From Escherichia coli (GTDB taxonomy: Bacteria > Pseudomonadota > Gammaproteobacteria > Enterobacterales > Enterobacteriaceae): 64,000 nucleotides of DNA. A program made the position numbers and the translations under genes. The stretch lies in NCBI RefSeq assembly GCF_965641715.1, contig NZ_OZ282453.1; one strand, 5' to 3'. Positions 1 to 33,675 of this stretch are shown piece by piece (position 1 is the stretch's first letter; the number at the start of each line of letters is the position of its first letter). Under the pieces are notes generated by a model. The model made no database searches. It saw only the letters and a program-made list of their open reading frames with translations, and was not told the origin of the DNA.

Positions 1-1137
1 GAAGAAGCGGCTGTAGGGATTAAAAAATCCATCGAAGCCGGAACCTCTAAACTGAACGGTTTACCGGTAGTTAACCACGGCGTCGCAGCTTGCCGTCGCC
101 TCACCGAAACCCTGCAAAAACCGCTACAGATCCGCCACGGCACGCCAGATGCGCGTCTGCTGGCTGAAATCTCAATGGCCAGCGGCTTTACCAGTTATGA
201 AGGCGGTGGCATTTCCTACAACATTCCGTATGCCAAACGCGTAACGCTGGAAAAATCGATCCGCGACTGGCAGTACTGCGACCGTTTAATGGGGATGTAT
301 GAAGAACACGGGATCCGCATCAACCGCGAACCGTTTGGCCCACTAACGGGTACGCTGATCCCGCCGTTTATCTCGCACTCTATCGCGATAATCGAAGGCT
401 TGCTGGCGCTGGAACAGGGTGTGAAATCTATCACCGTTGGTTATGGCCAGGTCGGCAGCCTGACGCAGGATGTTGCGGCGATCCAGTCTCTGCGTGAACT
501 TGCACACGAATATTTTCAGAGCTATGGCTATACCGACTATGAATTGAGTACCGTGTTTCACCAGTGGATGGGCGGCTTTCCGGAAGACGAATCGAAAGCG
601 TTCGCTATTATCTCCTGGGGCGCAGCCGTCGCGGGGATGTCTGGTGCCACCAAAGTCATCACCAAAAGTCCGCACGAAGCCTGGGGCATCCCGACTGCCG
701 CTGCCAACATTCAGGGGCTGAAAGCCTCCCGCCAGATGCTCAACATGGTCAATGAGCAGAAATTCCCGCCGTGCCCTGCGGTTGAACTGGAAATTGAACT
801 GATTAAGAGCGAGGTTCGCGCAGTACTGAATAAAGTGTTCGAACTGGGTAATGGTGATATTGCGCGCGGAACGGTGCTGGCATTTGAAGCGGGCGTACTG
901 GATGTGCCGTTTGCGCCAGCCGCCTGCAACGCGGGCAAAATTCTTCCGGTCCGTGACAACACCGGCGCGATACGCGTACTGGAAGCCGGAGCCGTTCCAT
1001 TGCCAAAAGATATTCTCGACCTCCACCACGATTACGTTGCGGAACGCGCACGCTTTGAAGGACGCCAACCGACATTCCAGATGGTTGTAGATGACATCAA
1101 TGCTGTATCCCACAGTAAATTAATAGGAAGACCATAA
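1..1137 (+). CDS. glmE: glutamate mutase epsilon (E) subunit, 5'-truncated by the window edge
   Basis: Frame 1 is open from nt 1 to the stop at 1135-1137; the translation reads as GlmE/MutE-like (from memory) and is followed directly by methylaspartase, as in mut-mal clusters. Confidence 0.8.
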   Translation, partial: EEAAVGIKKSIEAGTSKLNGLPVVNHGVAACRRLTETLQKPLQIRHGTPDARLLAEISMASGFTSYEGGGISYNIPYAKRVTLEKSIRDWQYCDRLMGMYEEHGIRINREPFGPLTGTLIPPFISHSIAIIEGLLALEQGVKSITVGYGQVGSLTQDVAAIQSLRELAHEYFQSYGYTDYELSTVFHQWMGGFPEDESKAFAIISWGAAVAGMSGATKVITKSPHEAWGIPTAAANIQGLKASRQMLNMVNEQKFPPCPAVELEIELIKSEVRAVLNKVFELGNGDIARGTVLAFEAGVLDVPFAPAACNAGKILPVRDNTGAIRVLEAGAVPLPKDILDLHHDYVAERARFEGRQPTFQMVVDDINAVSHSKLIGRP

Positions 1138-2378
1138 TGAAAATAAAACAGGCTCTGTTCACCGCTGGCTACTCCTCATTCTATTTCGATGACCAGCAGG
1201 CGATAAAAAACGGAGCGGGTCATGACGGCTTTTTTTATACCGGGGAGCCGGTAACACAGGGGTTTAACGCCGTTCGTCAGGCCGGGGAGTGCGTATCGGT
1301 ACAGTTGATTCTGGAAAACGGCGCGGTCGCCGTAGGTGACTGTACTGCCGTACAGTATTCCGGGGCAGGCGGTCGCGATCCACTGTTCCTCGCAGAGCAC
1401 TTTATTCCGTTCCTCAACGACCATATCAAGCCATTACTGGTAGGCCGCGATGTGGATGCTTTCCTGCCGAATGCCCGTTTCTTCGACAAACTGCGTATTG
1501 ACGGCAACTTGCTGCATACCGCCGTGCGCTACGGATTATCACAGGCGCTGCTTGATGCTACCGCGCTGGCAACCGGCCGTCTGAAAACTGAAGTGGTCTG
1601 TGATGAATGGCAGTTGCCACGCGTGGCGGAATCCATTCCATTATTTGGTCAGAGCGGCGACGATCGATATATCGCCGTCGATAAGATGATCCTTAAGGGC
1701 ATCGACGTGCTGCCCCATGCGCTGATTAATAACGTCGAAGAGAAGCTGGGCTTTAAAGGTGAAAAACTGCGCGAATATGTCCGCTGGTTGTCGGATCGCA
1801 TTCTAAGCAAGCGCACCAGCGCACGCTACCACCCTACCCTGCACATCGATGTATACGGCACTATCGGTCTGATCTTCGATATGGATCCGCTTCGCTGTGC
1901 GCAATACATCGCCAGCCTGGAAAAAGAAGCGCAAGGCCTGCCGCTCTACATCGAAGGGCCGGTCGATGCCGGTAACAAGCCCGATCAAATTCGCCTGCTG
2001 ACCGCGATTACCAAAGAGCTGACGCGCCTCGGTTCCGGCGTGAAAATTGTGGCCGATGAATGGTGTAACACCTACCAGGATATTGTTGATTTCACTGATG
2101 CTGCCAGTTGTCACATGGTGCAAATCAAAACCCCGGATCTGGGCAGTATTCACAACATCGTCGATGCGGTTCTTTACTGCAACAGCCACAGCATGGAAGC
2201 GTACCAGGGCGGCACCTGCAATGAAACTGATGTCAGTGCCCGCACCTGTGTCCACGTCGCCCTTGCCGCTCGCCCTATGCGTATGCTGGTAAAACCAGGG
2301 ATGGGCTTTGACGAAGGCCTCGATATTGTCTTCAACGAAATGAATCGTACTATCGCGCTGTTGCAGGCTAAGGATTAA
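1137..2378 (+). CDS. 3-methylaspartate ammonia-lyase (methylaspartase, enolase superfamily)
   Basis: 413 aa ORF; start ATG overlaps the glmE stop (TAATG); length and N-terminus match methylaspartase as recalled. Confidence 0.85.
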   Translation: MKIKQALFTAGYSSFYFDDQQAIKNGAGHDGFFYTGEPVTQGFNAVRQAGECVSVQLILENGAVAVGDCTAVQYSGAGGRDPLFLAEHFIPFLNDHIKPLLVGRDVDAFLPNARFFDKLRIDGNLLHTAVRYGLSQALLDATALATGRLKTEVVCDEWQLPRVAESIPLFGQSGDDRYIAVDKMILKGIDVLPHALINNVEEKLGFKGEKLREYVRWLSDRILSKRTSARYHPTLHIDVYGTIGLIFDMDPLRCAQYIASLEKEAQGLPLYIEGPVDAGNKPDQIRLLTAITKELTRLGSGVKIVADEWCNTYQDIVDFTDAASCHMVQIKTPDLGSIHNIVDAVLYCNSHSMEAYQGGTCNETDVSARTCVHVALAARPMRMLVKPGMGFDEGLDIVFNEMNRTIALLQAKD

Positions 2379-2381
2379 CAA

Positions 2382-3752
2382 ATGGCTCGTTCTTTTAAAG
2401 TCTTATCGCCAACGGCAATCCTCGGGTATGGATTCCCGGAAGAGAGCTTCCGCAAAGCGATGGCAGAATCGCCCGATCTGATCGCCGTTGATGCAGGCTC
2501 TTCCGATCCAGGCCCCCACTACCTCGGGGCAGGCAAACCGTTTACCGATCGCGCAGGGGTCAAGCGCGATCTGCGCTATATGATCACCGCAGGCGTGCAA
2601 AATAATATACCGGTGGTGATCGGAACGGCCGGCGGTTCTGGTGCCGCACCACACCTGGAGTGGTGCCGAGAAATAATTCATGAGATTGCCCAGGAAGAGC
2701 ACCTCTCGTTCTCGATGGCGTTGATCCCGGCAGACGTTGACAAAGCCATCGTCCACCAGGCGCTGGATAACGGCAAAATCACGGCGCTGGAGTTTGTCCC
2801 GCCGTTAACCCACGACGCGATTGACGAAAGTACGTATATCGTCGCGCAAATGGGCATCGAACCCTTCCAGCGGGCGCTGAAAGAAGGCGCGCAAGTGGTG
2901 CTGGGCGGGCGCGCTTACGACCCGGCCTGCTTTGCTGCGCTCCCGATCATGCAAGGCTTTGATGAAGGTCTGGCGCTGCATTGTGGGAAAATCCTTGAGT
3001 GCGCAGCAATCGCCGCAACGCCCGGCTCAGGCTCTGACTGTGCGATGGGCATCATTGATGACAACGGCTTTACGCTGAAGACATTTAATCCGAAGCGTAA
3101 ATTTACCGAAACGTCAGCAGCTGCACACACACTGTATGAGAAATCCGATCCCTACTTCCTGCCAGGACCTGGCGGCGTGTTGAACCTGAAAGGCTGCACA
3201 TTTAAAGCAGTCAATGACGGCGAAGTCTACGTCAGCGGTTCTAAGCATGAAGAAACGCCGTATGCCCTGAAACTGGAAGGTGCACGACGGGTGGGCTTCC
3301 GCTGTCTGACCATCGCCGGAACGCGCGACCCGATTATGATCGCCGGGATCGATAAAATCATCGATGAAGTCAAAACCAGCGTTTCGCGTAACCTGTCGCT
3401 CGACGATGACAGCATTCGCATCAATTTCCACCTGTACGGCAAAAACGGGGTGATGGGAGACCATGAACCGATGCAAACTGCCGGGCATGAGCTGGGGATT
3501 GTCCTTGATGTAGTTGCACCGACCCAGGAAATTGCCAACAGCGTTTGCTCGCTGGTGCGCTCTACCATGCTGCACTACGGCTATGAAAACCGCATCGCTA
3601 CCGCAGGTAATCTGGCGTTCCCGTTCTCCCCTTCTGATATCCAGGGCGGGCCGGTATACGAATTTTCCATATATCACCTGATTGAAGCCAACGACGCTCT
3701 GCGTTTTGATTTCCATATTGAACAGGTGACGCCAGAAGGAGTTCAGGCATGA
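2382..3752 (+). CDS. DUF1446 (AtuA-like) family protein, function unknown
   Basis: 456 aa ORF 3 nt after methylaspartase; family assignment from memory of AtuA-like proteins and needs an HMM check. Confidence 0.65.
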   Translation: MARSFKVLSPTAILGYGFPEESFRKAMAESPDLIAVDAGSSDPGPHYLGAGKPFTDRAGVKRDLRYMITAGVQNNIPVVIGTAGGSGAAPHLEWCREIIHEIAQEEHLSFSMALIPADVDKAIVHQALDNGKITALEFVPPLTHDAIDESTYIVAQMGIEPFQRALKEGAQVVLGGRAYDPACFAALPIMQGFDEGLALHCGKILECAAIAATPGSGSDCAMGIIDDNGFTLKTFNPKRKFTETSAAAHTLYEKSDPYFLPGPGGVLNLKGCTFKAVNDGEVYVSGSKHEETPYALKLEGARRVGFRCLTIAGTRDPIMIAGIDKIIDEVKTSVSRNLSLDDDSIRINFHLYGKNGVMGDHEPMQTAGHELGIVLDVVAPTQEIANSVCSLVRSTMLHYGYENRIATAGNLAFPFSPSDIQGGPVYEFSIYHLIEANDALRFDFHIEQVTPEGVQA

Positions 3753-4066
3753 AACAGTCAATTGTCTCACTGGCGCAAGTCATTCGTTCGAAAAATGCCG
3801 GACCTTACGAACTGGTTTTAGATATTTTATTTAAAACGAAAGAAAACTATGAGCGAGTTAAATCATCAGGGCAATTAACCCCAGAACTGATTGCGCGCTT
3901 ATATCATGTTGAACCAGACTTTATTCATCGTATTGTCTGGTTTGATCCTTCTAACGCAGTAAAAATCGTCATGCCACGAGATATTATCTCCGGGAATGTA
4001 GGTGACAATGATGTCTATGGTGCACAGCAACATGCACCTTTATTAAATATGAGTTTCGATTTGTAA
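3749..4066 (+). CDS. small DUF4387-like protein, usual partner of DUF1446
   Basis: 105 aa ORF whose start overlaps the upstream stop by 4 nt (ATGA), implying translational coupling. Confidence 0.55.
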   Translation: MKQSIVSLAQVIRSKNAGPYELVLDILFKTKENYERVKSSGQLTPELIARLYHVEPDFIHRIVWFDPSNAVKIVMPRDIISGNVGDNDVYGAQQHAPLLNMSFDL

Positions 4067-4149
4067 TAATCCGAATACTTTTAGCCAACTGACATCCCGT
4101 CACTTATTGCAGTTCAACACTTCAGCTATTTGTAAGGTTGTAATAGCAG

Positions 4150-4181
4150 GTAGATGCCTGAATCTCTATTCAGGCATCTAC
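4150..4181 (+). terminator. perfect 14-bp stem hairpin (gtagatgcctgaat-ctct-attcaggcatctac), attenuator or operator candidate
   Basis: Inverted repeat read directly in the sequence between the DUF4387 gene and the transporter gene; downstream tract is only moderately T-rich. Confidence 0.45.
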
Positions 4182-4205
4182 TTCTCCTGATTCTGATTTA
4201 TCGCC

Positions 4206-5507
4206 GTGCACCTGATGGAGGAAAAAATGAAGAAAATAAGTTTAACCACGATGATTCTTTTGGCGCTGGTACTTGGAATGATTATCGGCGTAGTGCTTAA
4301 TAACACTGTTTCACCGGAAACAGCAAAACTCTATGCGCAAGAAATATCGATATTCACGACGATTTTCTTACGACTGATAAAAATGATTATCGCTCCGTTA
4401 GTGGTCTCTACCCTGGTGGTAGGTATTGCTAAAATGGGCGATGCCAAAGCCCTTGGTCGTATTTTTTCTAAAACACTCTTTTTATTTATTTGCGCCTCAT
4501 TGCTGTCAATTGCCTTAGGCTTGATAACGGTAAATTTCTTCATGCCAGGCACAGGAATTAATTTTGTTGCACACGGTGCCGAAACCACAGGAGTGGTCGC
4601 GTCAGAACCCTTTACGCTAAAAGTATTTATTTCGCATGCTTTCCCCACCAGCATTGTCGATGCCATGGCGCACAATGAAATTTTGCAAATCGTGGTGTTC
4701 TCAATTTTCCTCGGCTGTAGCCTGACGGCGATTGGAGAGAAAGGCAGCGCCATCGTTCACGCCTTAGATTCGCTGGCACATGCCATGTTAAAGCTCACTG
4801 GCTACGTCATGCTCTTCGCTCCCCTGACCGTATTCGCTGCTATTTCAGCATTGATTGCTGAACGAGGACTGGCAGTTATGGTGAGCGCCGGGATCTTTAT
4901 GGGTGAATTTTATTTCACCATGTTATTACTTTGGGTGCTGCTTATCGGTCTGGCCATCGTTTATGTCGGCCCCTGCATCAGACGCCTGACCCGCGCCCTT
5001 TCGGAACCCGCCCTGCTGGCATTTACCACATCCAGTTCTGAAGCGGCTTTTCCGGGAACGCTTGAAAAACTGGAGCAATTTGGCGTTTCCCCCAAAATTG
5101 CCAGCTTTGTCTTACCCATTGGCTACTCATTTAATCTCGTTGGATCAATGGCCTACTGCTCCTTCGCCACAGTTTTCATCGCCCAGGCCTGCAATATCCA
5201 TTTATCCATCGGTGAGCAAATCACCATGCTGTTGATCCTGATGTTGACCTCGAAAGGAATGGCTGGCGTACCACGCGCCTCAATGGTGGTTATCGCCGCC
5301 ACGCTCAACCAGTTCAATATTCCGGAAGCGGGGCTGATCTTGCTGATGGGCGTTGATCCGTTCCTTGATATGGGGCGTTCCGCGACAAACGTCATGAGCA
5401 ACGCAATGGGCGCTGCGATGGTGAGTCGGTGGGAAGGCGAACATTTCGGCGAGGGCTGTCGGGGTAAAGCATTAAAACCCAATGAATCGAACGTTGCTCT
5501 GCCCTGA
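4206..5507 (+). CDS. dicarboxylate/amino acid:cation symporter (DAACS, GltP/DctA-like)
   Basis: 433 aa polytopic membrane protein with DAACS-like motifs (…FIAQ…, …GVPRAS…); start may be the internal ATG at 4227 (MKKISLT…). Confidence 0.8.
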   Translation: MHLMEEKMKKISLTTMILLALVLGMIIGVVLNNTVSPETAKLYAQEISIFTTIFLRLIKMIIAPLVVSTLVVGIAKMGDAKALGRIFSKTLFLFICASLLSIALGLITVNFFMPGTGINFVAHGAETTGVVASEPFTLKVFISHAFPTSIVDAMAHNEILQIVVFSIFLGCSLTAIGEKGSAIVHALDSLAHAMLKLTGYVMLFAPLTVFAAISALIAERGLAVMVSAGIFMGEFYFTMLLLWVLLIGLAIVYVGPCIRRLTRALSEPALLAFTTSSSEAAFPGTLEKLEQFGVSPKIASFVLPIGYSFNLVGSMAYCSFATVFIAQACNIHLSIGEQITMLLILMLTSKGMAGVPRASMVVIAATLNQFNIPEAGLILLMGVDPFLDMGRSATNVMSNAMGAAMVSRWEGEHFGEGCRGKALKPNESNVALP

Positions 5508-5614
5508 GGGGGATCTTAAGCAATCAGAAGCCAATGACTACGCATTTTTATAAGCCGGATCAAGAAGTTAGACGGCAATTAAGTAACACTAACGTTTAAG
5601 GTGAAAAGTGAAAT

Positions 5615-7267
5615 ATGTCCAAACCATTTATCTGGCAAGAACCGTTTCTACAAAATAAAGACGGTACAGAATATACATTAATTAGCGATCAACATATTAC
5701 AGTAACGGAATTAGACGGCGAAGAAGTGATAAAAATCGCTCCTGAAGCATTAACGCTGCTTGCCCGGCAGGCATTTTATGAAGCCTCTTTTTTCTTACGT
5801 TCCGCTCATTTGCAACAGGTCGCCAGCATTCTTAACGATCCGCAGGCCAGCAGTAATGATAAATACGTTGCGTTGCAGTTATTACGTAATGCTGAAGTCT
5901 CAGCAAAAGGGGTATTACCCAACTGTCAGGATACCGGCACCGCAACTATTATTGCCAGTAAAGGGCAACAGATATGGACCGGAGGTAACGACGCCGAAGC
6001 CTTAAGCAAAGGCATTTACACCACTTTTCAGGAAAATAATCTGCGCTTTTCACAAAATGCGCCGCTGGATATGTATACCGAAGTCAATACGCAAACCAAT
6101 CTCCCGGCGCAGATTGATATCTGCGCCGTCGCTGGTGATGAGTACCATTTCCTCTGTGTTAATAAAGGAGGCGGCTCTGCCAATAAAGCCGCGCTTTATC
6201 AGGAAACCAAATCCTTATTGCAACCAGAAAAACTGACCGCATTTTTAATCGAAAAAATGAAATCGCTGGGCACCGCTGCCTGCCCGCCTTACCACATCGC
6301 CTTTGTCGTCGGAGGGCTTTCAGCCGATCAAACCTTAAAAATTGCCAAGCTGGCCTCAACGAAATATTACGACAATTTGCCCACCAGCGGAAACGAGCAG
6401 GGACAAGCATTCCGTGATATTGAGCTGGAAAAAGCGTTGCTCGAGGCCAGTCAGCAATTTGGTATTGGTGCACAATTTGGGGGGAAATATTTCGCTCATG
6501 ATATTCGCGTCATTCGTCTGCCGCGTCACGGTGGCTCTTGCCCGATAGCTATGGCGCTCTCCTGTTCTGCCGATCGCAATATCAAAGCAAAAATTAACAA
6601 ACACGGTATCTGGCTGGAAAAACTCGAACACAATCCGGGGCAATATATTCCAGCCTCACTGCGGGAAGAAAATCACGCGCAACATGTACAACTGGATCTA
6701 AACCGTCCGTTGCGTGACGTGATGCTGGATCTCGCCAGATTACCGGTAGGCACCCGCGTGTCGTTAAGTGGTCCCATCGTAGTGGCGCGCGATATCGCCC
6801 ACGCCAAAATAAAAGCGCGGCTGGATAGCGGTGAATCGATGCCGGAGTACCTGAAGCATCATATTGTCTATTACGCTGGCCCGGCGAAAACACCGGAGAA
6901 CATGGCCTGCGGTTCACTGGGTCCAACTACGGGCGGTCGAATGGACGGTTATGTCGATACCTTCCAGGCGGCCGGCGGCAGTCTGGTGATGTTATCGAAA
7001 GGGAACCGCAGCCAGCAGGTCACCGATGCTTGTCACAAACATGGCGGCTTCAATCTGGGAAGTATTGGCGGTGCAGCTGCGTTACTGGCGCAAGAATATG
7101 TCAAAAGTCTGCGTTGCCTGGAATACCCGGAGCTGGGTATGGAAGCGGTGTGGATGATGGAAGTGGAAAATCTGCCCGCATTCATCCTGGTAGATGATAA
7201 AGGCAATAATTTCTTTAGTCTGTTTGAGCAGCAACACCGCTGCGCCAGTTGCCCTGCGGGACATTAA
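5615..7267 (+). CDS. fumD: class I (Fe-S) fumarate hydratase paralog, probable mesaconase/fumarase
   Basis: 550 aa, collinear with and highly similar to E. coli FumA as recalled; context with glutamate mutase and methylaspartase suggests mesaconate hydration. The symbol fumD is from memory of the O157:H7 literature. Confidence 0.8.
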
Positions 7268-7276
7268 GGAAAATGA

Positions 7277-7879
7277 ATGGAAGCGCGAATTTCAACTGAA
7301 CGGCATGTGCAGCGCCAACAGAAATTGAAGGAACAGGTCGATACGCGCGTCGCAGCGGCGATAGAGAAAAAAGGGATCTTGATTGTTTTCACCGGCAACG
7401 GCAAAGGGAAATCCACTGCCGCGTTTGGTACTGTGACGCGCGCGGTGGGTCATGGCAAAACGGTGGGGGTTGCGCAGTACATCAAGGGGCAATGGGACAA
7501 CGGCGAATACAACCTTCTCCAGCCGCTGGGGGTTGAGTTTCATATTATGGGAACCGGTTTTACCTGGGAGACACAGAACCGGCAAGCGGATATCGACGCG
7601 GCGAAAGAGGTCTGGTCGGAAAGCAAACGGATGCTGGCTGACAAGCGTTACGACTTAGTGGTGCTTGATGAGCTGACCTATATGCTGGCTTACCATTATC
7701 TGGATACCGAAGAAGTGATCGCTTCTCTGCAAAACCGCCCGGCACAACAAAGTGTCATTGTCACCGGACGCGGTTGCCACAGTCAGATATTAAAAATGGC
7801 AGATACGGTCAGCGAAATCCGCCCCGTCAAACATGCTTTTGATAACGGCATTCAGGCCCAGCCGGGTATCGACTGGTAA
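7277..7879 (+). CDS. ATP:cob(I)alamin adenosyltransferase (BtuR/CobA/CobO family)
   Basis: 200 aa with a P-loop (GNGKGKSTAAFG) typical of BtuR-type adenosyltransferases; fits the AdoCbl requirement of glutamate mutase. Confidence 0.8.
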   Translation: MEARISTERHVQRQQKLKEQVDTRVAAAIEKKGILIVFTGNGKGKSTAAFGTVTRAVGHGKTVGVAQYIKGQWDNGEYNLLQPLGVEFHIMGTGFTWETQNRQADIDAAKEVWSESKRMLADKRYDLVVLDELTYMLAYHYLDTEEVIASLQNRPAQQSVIVTGRGCHSQILKMADTVSEIRPVKHAFDNGIQAQPGIDW

Positions 7880-7882
7880 TAA

Positions 7883-7914
7883 CTGCGCCTGGCATCCCGC
7901 CAGGCGCAGGTTTT
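7883..7914. terminator. bidirectional intrinsic terminator between convergent genes
   Basis: 11-bp perfect stem (ctgcgcctggc / gccaggcgcag) followed by TTTT, sitting between the adenosyltransferase stop and the LysR stop. Confidence 0.55.
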
Positions 7915-8818
7915 ACATCTCCTGCGGTACGACCGATTTCGCCAGCAACCATTCACGAAATTGCTGCAAGTGCGGTGAGTCAGATTTCTCTTCCTGCCAC
8001 GTCATAATAAAACGATTACCGGTACGAATAGGCACATCACAGGGAATCACCATATCGCCACTATCCAAATCATGTTGAATAGCGAACCGTGGTAACAGCG
8101 CCACGCCGAGATTAGAGCGCACGGCGGCAATCAGCATTGAAAGCAAATCGAAACGTGGTCCGTTGTTGACCAGCGGACTACTAACGCCAGATAAAGCAAA
8201 CCACTCTTCCCAGCCAGTAATACGGGTGCTTTGATGCAGAAGTGGTAACTCAGTAAGCAGTTCTGCCACTGACAGTTTTTGATCGGACATTGCAAGCAAA
8301 CTGCCGCTGCATACCGGCAAAATCTCCTCATCAAAGAGATATTCTACTTCCGCCCAGGGTGCGCAAAAATTTTCGCGCATAATGACAGCATCGTACTCCC
8401 GATTAAGAAAATCGCCGTTATTAGCTAAAGAATGAATATTAACAATAATATCGGGATGTAACTTTGTGAATTCATGTAAATTTGGGATTAACCAGTGGGT
8501 ACTAAAAGTAGGATTAACGGCAAGTTCAATAACCTGAACCGTAGGCTGCCAGGTCATAATGGTATTGGTATCGCGTTCCAGCTTATTTAATGTTTCTTTT
8601 ACTATCCCCAGGTAATACTTCCCTTTATCATTAAGAAAAATGCGTTTTTTAGAGTGTGAAAATAACGGAGTACGTAAAAATTCCTCCAGCGCACTTACTT
8701 GTCTGAATACTGCACTTTGGGTTAACGCTAACTCCTCTGCCGCTCTGGTATAACTTTCATGACGTGCGACGACCTCAAAAGTCACCAGCAGTTCCGTTTT
8801 AGGTATTTTCCCTCGCAT
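7913..8818 (-). CDS. LysR-family transcriptional regulator
   Basis: 301 aa; N-terminal HTH (…FEVVARHESYTRAAEELALTQSAVFRQV…) typical of LysR-type regulators. Confidence 0.85.
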   Translation of the reverse strand: MRGKIPKTELLVTFEVVARHESYTRAAEELALTQSAVFRQVSALEEFLRTPLFSHSKKRIFLNDKGKYYLGIVKETLNKLERDTNTIMTWQPTVQVIELAVNPTFSTHWLIPNLHEFTKLHPDIIVNIHSLANNGDFLNREYDAVIMRENFCAPWAEVEYLFDEEILPVCSGSLLAMSDQKLSVAELLTELPLLHQSTRITGWEEWFALSGVSSPLVNNGPRFDLLSMLIAAVRSNLGVALLPRFAIQHDLDSGDMVIPCDVPIRTGNRFIMTWQEEKSDSPHLQQFREWLLAKSVVPQEM

Positions 8819-9100
8819 AATGCCGTCCCTTAAAAATAGTTTAAACCATCAAAAATACATTACTTATTACGAAGTAATGGTAACCAAAGCAGCAATAAAT
8901 AATTTATAAGAATCATGATTGACATTTATAAACCAGTAAGGCTGGCGTGACAAATATCTTAATCAGATAATAATAATCCGAAAAGCACAGCGCCTTTCGA
9001 ATTATCCGGAATCACATTAAGTGAAAATTATTAAATTGATATCATTTATCATATCTGTGGATATTATGATAAACAATCAACAAAGATTTTATTTTTGATT
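8819..9100. promoter_or_regulatory. AT-rich upstream region of the LysR gene
   Basis: About 280 bp of very AT-rich DNA immediately 5' of the LysR start; no specific motif assigned. Confidence 0.3.
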
Positions 9101-9383
9101 TATAGCATATCCCTCTAAGAATTTTTGCGATGCTGCAATATCCGGGGTAAAGACCCGATCCTGGCTGACAAATGGCACGACTTGACGAAAAGCGGTGAAC
9201 ATCGCTTTTGTTGATTTACTTAACGCTACGGTCAAACGCTGGGAAGCCAGTGCATCAGGTAACGATTCGAAATTCGCCGTCGTTCTTATTCGTGGCTTGC
9301 GGTCGGTTGCGGCAATCCACAGTGGCTGTGGTCATGCAGTCAAGCCTGCAGTCAGATTTCGACCGTGGTTAACCGTTTAAGGC

Positions 9384-9484
9384 ATAAAAAAGGCCATCAT
9401 ACGATGGCCAACCATGTCGAAACCGACAGCCCTTCGCCATTCCTGTAGAGGGAAGCGGCGAGGGCTATTTCTTATTACAGATAT
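9384..9484 (-). ncRNA. sdhX: 3'-UTR-derived sRNA SdhX (RybD) with its intrinsic terminator
   Basis: Lies immediately 3' of the sucD stop on the minus strand; terminator hairpin ggccatcgtatgatggcc followed by a U-run, as at the K-12 sucD 3' end. Confidence 0.6.
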
Positions 9485-10354
9485 TTATTTCAGAACAGTT
9501 TTCAGTGCTTCACCGATATCCGCCAGGCTGCGAACGGTTTTCACGCCTGCGGCTTCCAGAGCAGCGAATTTCTCATCCGCAGTCCCTTTCCCACCGGCAA
9601 TGATGGCACCCGCGTGGCCCATACGTTTGCCTTTCGGCGCAGTCACACCAGCGATGTAACCCACAACTGGCTTGGTAACGTGCTCTTTGATGTACGCAGC
9701 TGCTTCTTCTTCAGCGCTACCGCCGATCTCACCGATCATCACGATCGCTTCGGTCTGCGGATCTTTTTCGAACATTTCAAGAATGTCGATAAAGTTAGAG
9801 CCAGGGATCGGGTCACCGCCGATACCGACACAGGTCGACTGACCGAAACCGTAATCCGTGGTCTGTTTAACCGCTTCATAGGTCAGTGTACCGGAACGGG
9901 AAACGATACCCACTTTACCCGGTTTGTGAATGTGACCCGGCTGAATACCGATTTTGCATTCACCCGGAGTGATAACGCCTGGGCAGTTCGGGCCGATCAT
10001 ACGAACGCCTGCTTCATCCAGCTTCACTTTCACAGTCAGCATATCCAGCGTCGGGATGCCTTCAGTGATGGTGATAATCAGTTTGATGCCTGCGTCGATG
10101 GCTTCCAGAATGGAGTCTTTGCAGAACGGTGCTGGTACGTAGATAACAGAAGCGGTAGCGCCAGTAGCAGCAACAGCTTCACGCACGGTGTTGAACACCG
10201 GCAGGCCGAGGTGGGTAGTACCGCCTTTACCTGGAGTTACGCCACCAACCATTTTGGTGCCGTATGCAATGGCCTGTTCAGAGTGGAAAGTCCCCTGGCT
10301 ACCGGTAAAGCCCTGGCAGATAACCTTGGTGTTTTTATCAATTAAAATGGACAT
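9485..10354 (-). CDS. sucD: succinyl-CoA synthetase alpha subunit
   Basis: 289 aa, [24 protein letters not shown]…. Confidence 0.97.
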
Positions 10355-11520
10355 TATTTCCCCTCCACTGCGGCAACAACCTGCTGAGCTGCATCCGTCA
10401 GACCTTTTGCTGCAATAATATTCAGGCCGCTGTCAGCCAGTTTCTTCGCGCCGAGTTCGGCGTTGTTACCTTCCAGACGTACCACGACCGGTACGTTAAC
10501 ACCCACTTCCGCTACCGCGCCGATGATACCGTCAGCGATCAGGTCGCAACGAACGATACCGCCGAAGATGTTAACCAGAACGGCTTTCACTTTGTCGTCA
10601 GAGAGAATGATTTTGAACGCTTCGGTTACACGTTCTTTGGTTGCGCCGCCGCCAACGTCAAGGAAGTTAGCTGGTTCGCCGCCGTGCAGTTTAACGATGT
10701 CCATCGTACCCATCGCCAGACCTGCGCCGTTAACCATACAACCGATGTTACCGTCCAGCGCAACGTAGTTCAGTTCCCACTGTGCAGCCTGTGCTTCACG
10801 CGGATCTTCCTGCGACTGGTCACGCATTTCGCGCAGATCAGGCTGGCGGAACAGGGCGTTGCCATCAGCGCCCAGTTTGCCGTCGAGGCAAATCAGATCA
10901 CCCTGTTTGGTGATGACCAGCGGGTTGATTTCGATCAGCGCCAGATCGCGTTCCAGGAAAATGGTCGCCAGGCCCATGAAGATTTTGGTGAACTGCTGAA
11001 CCAGTTTACCTTCCAGACCCAGTTTGAACGCCAGCTCGCGTCCCTGATACGGCATCGGGCCAGTCAGTGGATCAAGCGCAACTTTGTGGATCAGATGCGG
11101 AGTTTCTTCCGCCACTTTTTCGATTTCCACGCCGCCTTCGGTGGAGGCCATAAAGACCACGCGACGGGAACTACGGTCTACAACGGCACCGAGGTACAGC
11201 TCTTTAGCGATATCGGTCGCTGCTTCAACCAGAATCTGGTTAACCGGTTGGCCATTAGCATCTGTTTGATACGTTACCAGACGCTTGCCGAGCCAGTTTT
11301 CTGCAAAAGCACGGATGTCTTCTTTGCTGTTTACAACTTTCACACCGCCCGCTTTACCGCGGCCACCAGCGTGAACCTGACATTTCACTACCCACGGACC
11401 GGCACCGATTTTTGAAGCGGCTTCTTCTGCTTCGCGCGGAGTAGTACAGGCATAACCCACCGGTGCTGGTAAGCCATAGCGGGCAAACAGTTGTTTTGCC
11501 TGATATTCATGTAAGTTCAT
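10354..11520 (-). CDS. sucC: succinyl-CoA synthetase beta subunit
   Basis: 388 aa, [18 protein letters not shown]…; overlaps the sucD start by 1 nt. Confidence 0.97.
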
Positions 11521-11559
11521 GTGTTCTGTCCATCCTTCAGTAATCGTTATCTTTTAAAC

Positions 11560-11860
11560 CGTAGACCGAATATTTCGTATCGCTCCCGGGTATTGTCGGT
11601 CACCCGTAGGCCTGATAAGACGTGTAAGCGTCGCATCTGGCATCGCTTGTCGGATGCGGCGCGAGCGCCTTATCCGACCTACATCGGTGCTTCCCGTAGG
11701 CCTGATAAGACGTGTAAGCGTCGCATCAGACATCGCTTGTCGGATGCGGCGCGAGCGCCTTATCCGACCTACATTGGTGGTCCCGTAGGCCTGATAAGAC
11801 GCGTCAGCGTCGCATCAGGCTTCAATTGCCGGAGAAGGCGATAATGCCTTATCCGGTCTA
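11560..11860. repeat. BIME/REP array, three ~95-bp units
   Basis: Three near-identical units containing gcctgataagacg…gcgtcgcatc…cggatgcggcg…ccttatccgacctac palindromes in the sucB-sucC intergenic region. Confidence 0.85.
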
Positions 11861-11883
11861 CAGTGCAGGTGAAACTTAAACTA

Positions 11884-13101
11884 CTACACGTCCAGCAGCA
11901 GACGCGTCGGATCTTCCAGCAACTCTTTGATCGTTACCAGGAAGCCCACGGATTCGCGACCATCGATCAGACGGTGATCGTAGGACAGCGCCAGGTACAT
12001 CATCGGCAGGATCTCAACCTGACCATTCACAGCCATCGGACGATCTTTGATAGCGTGCATACCCAGAATTGCGCTCTGCGGCGGGTTGATGATCGGCGTA
12101 GACATCAGGGAACCGAACACACCACCGTTGGTGATGGTGAAGTTACCACCGGTCAGATCTTCAACCGTCAGCTTGCCGTCACGGCCTTTAACTGCCAGCT
12201 CTTTGATTTTCTTCTCGATGTCTGCCATGCCGAGGGTATCGACATCACGCAGTACCGGCGTCACCAGGCCGCGCGGCGTAGAAACCGCCATGCTGACGTC
12301 GAAATAGTTGTGGTAAACCACGTCATCGCCGTCGATAGAAGCATTCACTTCCGGGTAACGTTTCAGGGCTTCAACCACCGCTTTCACGTAGAAGGACATA
12401 AAGCCCAGACGGATGCCGTGGCGTTTTTCAAACGCTTCACCGTACTGCTTACGCAGATCCATAATCGGCTTCATGTTGACTTCGTTGAACGTGGTCAGCA
12501 TGGCGGTGGAGTTTTTCGCTTCCAGCAGACGCTCTGCCACACGCTTACGCAGGCGAGTCATCGGGACACGTTTTTCACTACGTGCAGCCAGAGCCGGTTG
12601 CGCCGCCGGAGCAGCCGCTGCCGGTGCAGACTCTTTCGCCGGGGATTTCGCCAGATGTTTTTCCACATCTTCACGGGTCAGACGACCACCCACACCGGTG
12701 CCTTTAATGGCGCTGGCGTCGAGGTTATGTTCAGCCAGCAAGCGACGGATCGCCGGGCTTAACGCATCGTTGTTTTGCTCTTCCAGAGACGCCTGCTGGC
12801 GTTGCGCCGGAGTGGACGCTTTCTCTTCAGATTTGGCGCTGGTTTCTTTACCGGCGCTGTTGCCTTCACGCAGGCGACCAAGGATCTGACGAGACGTTAC
12901 CGTTGTACCTTCATCTTTCAGAACCGCATCCAGAATGCCGTCTGCTGATGCCGGTACTTCCAGTACCACTTTGTCAGTTTCGATTTCTACCAGCACTTCA
13001 TCACGTACGACTGCGTCGCCGGGTTTTTTATGCCAGGTTGCGACGGTGGCATCGGCTACGGATTCAGGCAGGTCAGGGACCAGAATATCTACGCTACTCA
13101 T
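11884..13101 (-). CDS. sucB: 2-oxoglutarate dehydrogenase E2 (dihydrolipoyl succinyltransferase)
   Basis: 405 aa, [26 protein letters not shown]…. Confidence 0.97.
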
Positions 13102-16094: not shown

Positions 16095-16217
16095 ACGCCT
16101 GATGCGCTGCGCTTATCAGGCCTACGGGTAATGACTTGTAGGCCGGATAAGGCGTTCACGCCGCATCCGGCACTGGTTGCCTGATGCGACGCTTGCGCGT
16201 CTTATCAGGCCTACGGT
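16095..16217. repeat. REP elements in the sdhB-sucA intergenic region
   Basis: gcctgatgcg…cttatcaggcctac and gccggataaggcg…gcatccggc palindromes. Confidence 0.8.
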
Positions 16218-33559: not shown

Positions 33560-33675
33560 GATGCCTGATGCGACGCTTGACGCGTCTTATCAGGCCTACG
33601 TATTTCCTGCAATTTATTGAATTTGCACAAATTTGTAGGCTGGATAAGGCGTTCACGCCGCATCCGGCATCTGGG
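33560..33675. repeat. REP elements between dtpD and phr
   Basis: gcctgatgcgacgcttgacgcgtcttatcaggcctac and ggctggataaggcgttcacgccgcatccggc. Confidence 0.8.

Follow-up and report, generated by a model that had tools for sequence, protein, structure and literature searches.

A methylaspartate pathway island next to sucD in Escherichia coli with a predicted citramalate lyase between mal and the transporter gene

Does the glutamate mutase island found next to sucD in part of the Escherichia coli population encode the whole route from glutamate to pyruvate and acetate, or does the pathway it encodes stop before citramalate is cleaved? The question is raised here by a stretch of 64,000 nucleotides of an E. 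coli genome (contig NZ_OZ282453.1, assembly GCF_965641715.1), called the window below. Judged by sequence, positions 1-9378 of the window are the sucD-proximal two thirds of a chromosomal accessory island of ~14 kb. An earlier note on this DNA had recognized genes for the glutamate mutase E subunit, a methylaspartate ammonia-lyase, a FumA paralog, an adenosyltransferase, a DAACS transporter and a LysR regulator, and each of them was located at its described place with NCBIfam models. The same note had stated that a citramalate-cleaving step was not obviously encoded. This is wrong, because two intact open reading frames (ORFs) between mal and the transporter gene had been skipped; both of their products are ~92% identical, over their full length, to a deposited citramalate lyase (PDB 9ERQ/9EVF). 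The methylaspartate (mesaconate) route encoded by the island is likely to be complete and self-sufficient, converting glutamate to pyruvate, acetate and ammonia.

The two skipped ORFs, cmlA and cmlB, carry this reading. In a search of the PDB sequences, CmlA matched chain A of 9ERQ/9EVF over its full length (973 bits), and residues 1-104 of CmlB matched chain B (193.5 bits). The entries, released in October 2025, name the molecules "Citramalate lyase, subunit A (cmlA)" and "subunit B (cmlB)", with AMPPNP-citramalate as ligands in 9ERQ and ADP-pyruvate in 9EVF. The deposited protein comes from another enterobacterial species than its E. coli orthologue in the window. Based on the shared name cmlAB, it is probably the Raoultella planticola enzyme (Berg laboratory) of a preprint in which Raoultella cmlAB was used in vivo to split citramalate into pyruvate and acetate, growth on mesaconate depended on cmlAB, and label passed from mesaconate to acetyl-CoA in the strains expressing cmlAB (bioRxiv 10.64898/2026.01.16.699985).

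Neither of the two sets of names under which these genes are annotated points to a lyase. CmlA matches PF07287 (AtuA/DUF1446) weakly (68.6 bits, residues 63-393), CmlB matches PF14330 (DUF4387) with 134 bits, and no NCBIfam match was found for either protein. The NCBI Prokaryotic Genome Annotation Pipeline (PGAP) labels them "AtuA family protein" and "DUF4387", the first name being given because CmlA shares PF07287 with AtuA. In the record of the O157:H7 strain Sakai, cmlA (ECs_0760) is labeled "3-methylaspartate ammonia-lyase" and cmlB (ECs_0759) "acyl-CoA synthetase", and the Sakai CmlB is identical to that of the window at 105/105 residues. Indeed, a second 3-methylaspartate ammonia-lyase (MAL) is often wrongly annotated at the DUF1446 gene that follows mal (Kronen & Berg 2015, PMC4682846). 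We propose that the pair labeled "AtuA family protein" and "DUF4387" next to mal be re-annotated as the predicted citramalate lyase CmlAB. The fate of citramalate was left open in 2015, and the E. coli citrate lyase does not cleave this compound (Kronen & Berg 2015, PMC4682846). Since then, CmlAB has supplied this last open step of the pathway (PDB release 2025, preprint 2026), and reading cmlAB as the lyase closes the gap that made the pathway look incomplete in Enterobacteriaceae. Window 1-9400 contains no gene for a CitDEF-type subunit (alpha, beta or gamma/acyl carrier protein) or for CitC, CitX or CitG, and neither does the entire island of strain ETEC6335 (L001), a near-identical genome.

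A truncated pathway would take glutamate only to (S)-citramalate, with cleavage elsewhere or not at all, and would make the DUF1446 and DUF4387 genes unrelated passengers. No citramalate lyase activity was found in extracts of E. coli grown on citrate, acetate or propionate (PMC4682846), and DUF1446 was of unknown function in 2015. Those extracts, however, came from cells not expressing the island. Moreover, the enzyme to which both ORFs are so similar was deposited with citramalate or pyruvate bound, cmlAB supports the conversion of mesaconate to acetyl-CoA in vivo according to the preprint, and cmlAB is tightly syntenic with mal across phyla, where no CitDEF-type family was seen among the called genes. 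We find such a truncation scarcely credible.

The synteny was observed by tracing CmlA homologues of 62-68% identity to seven long contigs by exact-protein look-ups. The order glmS-(mutL)-glmE-mal-cmlA-cmlB was found in six of the seven contexts, including those of Candidatus Rifleibacterium (Riflebacteria) and of a metagenome-assembled genome (MAG) of Lentisphaerae; in L006, unrelated genes are interspersed. The cmlA and cmlB genes occur together in all seven, adjacent in six and three genes apart in L006. A class I fumarase gene is part of the locus in three of the six glm-mal-cml contexts (L005, L007 and L010), a gene for a LysR regulator lies next to two of the distant clusters as well, and no citDEF-type Pfam family was detected among the called genes of these loci. 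Conservation of the glm-mal-cml order across phyla is the pattern expected of a dedicated terminal enzyme of the pathway.

Two further features of the distant loci were observed. In an Accumulibacter MAG (L004:9001-10679), the neighbors of the cmlAB pair (CmlA 68% identical) are rpoBC and an RND efflux operon, and neither glm and mal nor a fumarase gene occurs within 9 kb of it. Given this context, CmlAB may also serve other citramalate-producing routes. In addition, each of the six methylaspartate clusters examined outside the enterobacteria encodes, after cmlB, a protein of ~307-318 residues with a Walker A motif (GAEGAGKSTL). This protein belongs to no Pfam or NCBIfam family, matches PDB entries only at the level of the P-loop, and has no counterpart in the window or in the E. 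coli island by tblastn. This P-loop protein may assist the pathway as an NTPase, for instance in B12 handling, at the place taken by cobO in E. coli. A hypothetical protein of 314 residues, encoded in the E. coli island on the cydA side, was considered as its counterpart and rejected, with a spurious identity of 17-25% and no Walker A motif.

For the steps upstream of citramalate, the enzymes were identified with curated models. The cut-offs were exceeded by the GlmE, MAL, FumD and CobO of the window as well as by GlmS and GlmL of ETEC6335. The first two ORFs are glutamate mutase E and methylaspartase, as had been noted, with 703 bits for GlmE on TIGR01503 (cut-off 390, profile positions 103-480) and 543 bits for MAL on TIGR01502 (cut-off 286). 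GlmE aligns with residues 106-482 of the Clostridium GlmE (6H9E/1CCW) at 511 bits and ~60% identity, as read off the alignment, and the substrate and catalytic residues, which we take to be R149, E171 and Y181 in the numbering of the literature, are kept. It is identical to the Sakai protein at 377 of 378 residues; residue 352 is Phe in the window and Cys in both reference strains. MAL aligns full-length and without gaps to the Citrobacter amalonaticus enzyme 1KKO (897 bits, ~93% identical), reaches 500 bits against 1KCZ of C. tetanomorphum, and keeps the Mg site of the enolase superfamily and the catalytic residues, Lys331 and His194 among them (H194, D238, E273, D307, Q329 and K331). The adenosyltransferase scores 296 bits on NF004637 (cut-off 185) and 247 on TIGR00708 (cut-off 168), and the P-loop GNGKGKST is present in its translation. 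Searches for a cobalamin riboswitch were negative both in window 1-12000 (Rfam gathering search) and upstream of glmS in ETEC6335, where an E-value search found no other known RNA either.

The FumA paralog is FumD, as the earlier note had stated. It scores 1273 bits on NF011921 (cut-off 1060), with 924 on the FumA model NF011919, below the cut-off of 1105, has the three cluster cysteines (Cys104, Cys223 and Cys317), and is identical at 541/550 residues (98.4%) to ECs_0757 of Sakai. The latter was characterized as a mesaconase/fumarase that prefers mesaconate 2-3 fold in kcat/Km (2x10^6 M-1 s-1, vs 7.5x10^5 for fumarate) (PMC4682846). Both reference strains have Ser at the position of Cys170 and Gln at that of Leu536 in the FumD of the window. 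Finally, the glmS and glmL genes expected upstream of glmE were found in ETEC6335, Sakai and RIVM_C037134, in which glmL, glmS, two hypothetical genes and then cydA precede glmE. The GlmS and GlmL proteins of ETEC6335 are well above the curated cut-offs (GlmS, 253 bits on NF002612).

From these genes the following pathway can be proposed. Glutamate would enter through the DAACS symporter and be converted to (2S,3S)-3-methylaspartate by the adenosylcobalamin-dependent GlmSE, with GlmL as the predicted reactivase or accessory protein of the mutase, and the CobA/CobO-type adenosyltransferase of the island would make the coenzyme from salvaged corrinoid. MAL would then release ammonia to give mesaconate, and FumD would hydrate mesaconate to (S)-citramalate, a reaction demonstrated in biochemical work on the Sakai protein (98.4% identical). 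The last enzyme, CmlAB, would split citramalate into pyruvate and acetate with neither an acyl-carrier subunit nor CoA. ATP would activate the carboxylate on the acetate side as an acyl phosphate, making the C-C cleavage chemically feasible without a thioester, and pyruvate would be released with acetyl phosphate or acetate. The convergent LysR gene would switch the pathway genes on in response to a signal.

Several points weigh against this proposal. No MAL activity was detected in E. coli O157:H7 ATCC 700728, and this strain did not grow anaerobically in a glutamate-dependent manner under any of the conditions tried (Kronen & Berg 2015, PMC4682846), which leaves the physiological operation of the pathway in E. 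coli unproven. The assignment of the citramalate lyase is based on the titles of PDB deposits and on a preprint whose authors received the genes as a gift. In the library searched, a primary biochemical paper on CmlAB, DUF1446 or DUF4387 was not found; the searches led to the FumD paper of 2015 and the preprint of 2026. The lyase function of the E. coli CmlAB is drawn from the identity of ~92%, and the role of ATP is suggested by nothing other than the ligand names in the deposit titles. Glutamate is the presumed substrate of the DAACS protein, which would be its importer. The glmS and glmL genes of this strain itself lie outside the window, and were seen upstream in the three near-identical genomes.

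The lack of activity raises the possibility of a cryptic relic, a horizontally acquired element that is silent, decays and has no function in E. coli today. Neither expression nor activity was found under laboratory conditions (PMC4682846), the GC content is low in places (0.38-0.39 at 4001-4500 and 8501-9000), and the island is missing from ~79% of the complete E. coli genomes. Against this, all eight ORFs in the window are intact, and 1118 genomes carry the region over 80% or more of its length, with an identity of 98-99% or higher. In a comparison with a 98.3% identical allele, the pooled ratio of nonsynonymous to synonymous changes (pN/pS) of the island genes is 0.056 (126 synonymous vs 23 nonsynonymous), comparable to that of sucD, and the synonymous divergence (dS) of the island genes is 0.03-0.09, like that of the neighboring sucD (0.083). 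The low pN/pS and the sucD-like dS point to a long residence under purifying selection, which argues indirectly for use of the pathway. That the island is a relic is very doubtful.

The transporter gene and the spacer in front of it bear on another reading. The transporter scores 314 bits on the DctA model (cut-off 513) and 303 on the GltP model (cut-off 638); being below both cut-offs, it is a distinct DAACS member and not a GltP equivalog, the label GltP having been used by Kronen & Berg 2015 (PMC4682846). The spacer of 160 bp between cmlB and the transporter gene contains a perfect hairpin with a 16-bp stem and a 4-nt loop (centroid fold -23.7 kcal/mol; z = -4.45 vs shuffles for a window of 76 nt). 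It may function as an internal terminator, an attenuator, an mRNA-processing or -stabilizing structure, or a protein-binding palindrome, and it may split the island into two units. Upstream of it, the TAATG and ATGA overlaps and the 3-nt spacer indicate co-translation of glmE, mal, cmlA and cmlB.

Could the island then be a module for exogenous C5-dicarboxylates, in which the transporter, FumD and CmlAB mainly take up and use external mesaconate, citramalate or methylaspartate independently of B12, for instance from the host or the microbiota, with glutamate mutase as just one feeder? Scores as high on DctA as on GltP, a strong hairpin that parts cmlB from the transporter-fumD-cobO block, the occurrence of cmlAB without glm or mal nearby in Accumulibacter, and the observation that CmlAB and a fumarase suffice for growth of engineered E. 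coli on mesaconate (preprint) are all in line with this. On the other side, the transporter-fumD block contains cobO, which serves only the B12 enzyme, the translational coupling of cmlAB is to mal and not to fumD, cmlAB follows glm-mal in six of the seven contexts, and the hut genes next to the island in some strains indicate glutamate as the substrate. We regard this module as very unlikely. It is also unlikely, when taken jointly, that the transporter and FumD with CmlAB give island-positive (largely pathogenic) E. coli a B12-independent use of exogenous mesaconate or citramalate and, separately, that CmlAB conserves energy via acetyl phosphate. If true, the exogenous C5-dicarboxylates could be derived from the host or the microbiota, and, with acetyl phosphate released, the AtuA family would amount to a general class of C-C lyases that depend on ATP and form acyl phosphates.

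The LysR protein is the presumed regulator of the glutamate pathway island. Its best match, NF008352 (221 bits), is below the cut-off of 288, which places it in the LysR family but not as GcvA itself. The hairpin between the convergent cobO and lysR genes (-28.1 kcal/mol, z = -5.0) is probably a bidirectional terminator for the operon and for lysR. The coordinates of all these features are listed in Table 1.

Table 1. Features of the island and its core-genome border in the window, and position of the Walker A protein in distant clusters
Feature	Position	Strand	Remarks
glmE, glutamate (methylaspartate) mutase E subunit	1-1137	+	C-terminal 378 of ~481 codons; 5' end beyond window
mal, 3-methylaspartate ammonia-lyase, 413 aa	1137-2378	+	start overlaps glmE stop (TAATG)
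cmlA, predicted large AtuA/DUF1446-type citramalate lyase subunit, 456 aa	2382-3752	+	starts 3 nt after mal stop
cmlB, predicted small DUF4387 citramalate lyase subunit, 105 aa	3749-4066	+	ATGA overlap with cmlA at 3749-3752
Perfect hairpin in cmlB-transporter spacer	4148-4183	+	
DAACS-family dicarboxylate/amino acid:cation symporter, 426 aa	4227-5507	+	PGAP start ATG 4227 after GGAGGA; alternative GTG 4206
fumD, class I (Fe-S) fumarase/mesaconase, 550 aa	5615-7267	+	single-chain fusion
cobO/cobA-type ATP:cob(I)alamin adenosyltransferase, 200 aa	7277-7879	+	
GC-rich 11-bp hairpin between cobO and lysR	7883-7909		terminator scan
LysR-type (GcvA-like) regulator, 301 aa	7913-8818	-	convergent with cobO; LysR annotation in relatives
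AT-rich spacer, lysR promoter region and island right junction	8819-9378		GC 0.38-0.43
sdhX small RNA (sucD 3' untranslated region)	9384-9484	-	core genome; outer edge of island
sucD	9485-10354	-	core genome gene beyond island edge
Walker A protein after cmlB	L005:10712-11665		
Walker A protein after cmlB	L006:14269-15201		
Walker A protein after cmlB	L007:10677-11618		
Walker A protein after cmlB	L008:10698-11654		
Walker A protein after cmlB	L009:10698-11621		
Walker A protein after cmlB	L010:10706-11629		

Compared with known systems, the island is closest to the cluster of O157:H7 Sakai, which lies at the same sucD-cydA locus in the same gene order with 99.3% nucleotide identity, proteins differing by 0-9 residues and no structural difference. 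Indeed, the cluster was already published in 2015 (Kronen & Berg, PMC4682846); it is known accessory biology, and nothing in the window departs from it. The clostridial cluster of C. tetanomorphum and C. tetani (glmS-mutL-glmE-mal-mesAB-citDEF, citCXG) encodes the same chemistry with other parts. As mesaconase, the island encodes a class I fumarase fused into a single chain, and clostridia have the two-subunit MesAB; the lyase is the AtuA/DUF4387-type CmlAB in place of a CitDEF-type complex with an acyl carrier protein. The island also includes an adenosyltransferase gene of its own, and its regulator is of the LysR type, that of the clostridial cluster of the GntR type. In the haloarchaeal methylaspartate cycle, glutamate mutase and MAL likewise lead to mesaconate (PMC4682846), but there a CoA-transferase activates mesaconate and hydration takes place as mesaconyl-CoA, for acetate assimilation; neither a CoA-transferase nor a mesaconyl-CoA hydratase gene was found in the window. 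Finally, AtuA of the acyclic terpene utilization cluster of Pseudomonas shares PF07287 with CmlA, a weak profile match. The DUF4387 part of the island's enzyme is a separate polypeptide, unlike in AtuA, and its context is glutamate and not terpene catabolism. We know of no function for AtuA proper.

The placement of the island and its accessory character had been described correctly. It directly follows sucD-sdhX, and the end noted at 9383 is close to the true right junction at ~9378-9380, where homology to K-12 begins just outside sdhX by BLAST and alignment. The methylaspartate route had been described as reported from O157:H7, and the region is 99.3-99.4% identical at the nucleotide level to E. 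coli chromosomes that include those of O157:H7 Sakai and EDL933. It was found in 1134 of the 5426 complete E. coli genomes (~21%). Given a corrinoid, these ~21% would be genetically equipped to convert glutamate of the gut to pyruvate, acetate and ammonia, and among the matches listed the carriers include O157:H7 strains (Sakai, EDL933 and others).

K-12 has the gene order sdhX-mngR-mngA-mngB-cydA at this locus, so that mngR-mngAB is at the corresponding position as had been noted. The island measures 13,966 bp in ETEC6335, and its K-12 counterpart mngR-mngA-mngB measures 5,929 bp. Replacement of mngRAB, which is present in 3887/5426 complete genomes, by the island holds for the K-12 locus but not strictly: at the sucD-cydA locus of strain E686 (L013:13408-16836), the glutamate island occurs together with an RtcB-family gene and mngB. 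The idea of the island and mngRAB as strict alternatives at one site was dropped for that reason.

In strain EC200461 (L012:11589-14217), a HAL-family ammonia-lyase gene and hutG are found between lysR and the core genome. The hut genes, for the conversion of histidine to glutamate, beside the island in some strains support glutamate as its substrate, and in such strains the same route would apply to histidine.

At the border with the core genome, sdhX is identical to K-12 b4764 at 100/101 positions by direct alignment; it was not reported by an Rfam gathering search, and the terminator scan placed its terminator hairpin at 9392-9409. Between lysR and sdhX (window 8837-9383), the sequence differs from strain to strain, matches in other strains stopping at 8836 or 9217. 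At the other end of the island, beyond the window, are the two hypothetical genes, L001:3841-4785 (314 aa) and L001:4866-5288 (140 aa), which are common to ETEC6335, Sakai, RIVM_C037134 and E686 and belong to no family in Pfam, NCBIfam or PADLOC.

Outside the island, the sucB-sucC spacer of the window (11570-11853) contains a stretch of 284 bp with two naRNA4 elements derived from repetitive extragenic palindromic sequences (11609-11679 and 11699-11769, minus strand), which is missing from Sakai and present in ETEC6335. A further naRNA4 copy was found at window 16141-16211 and an ES036 element at 33592-33634.

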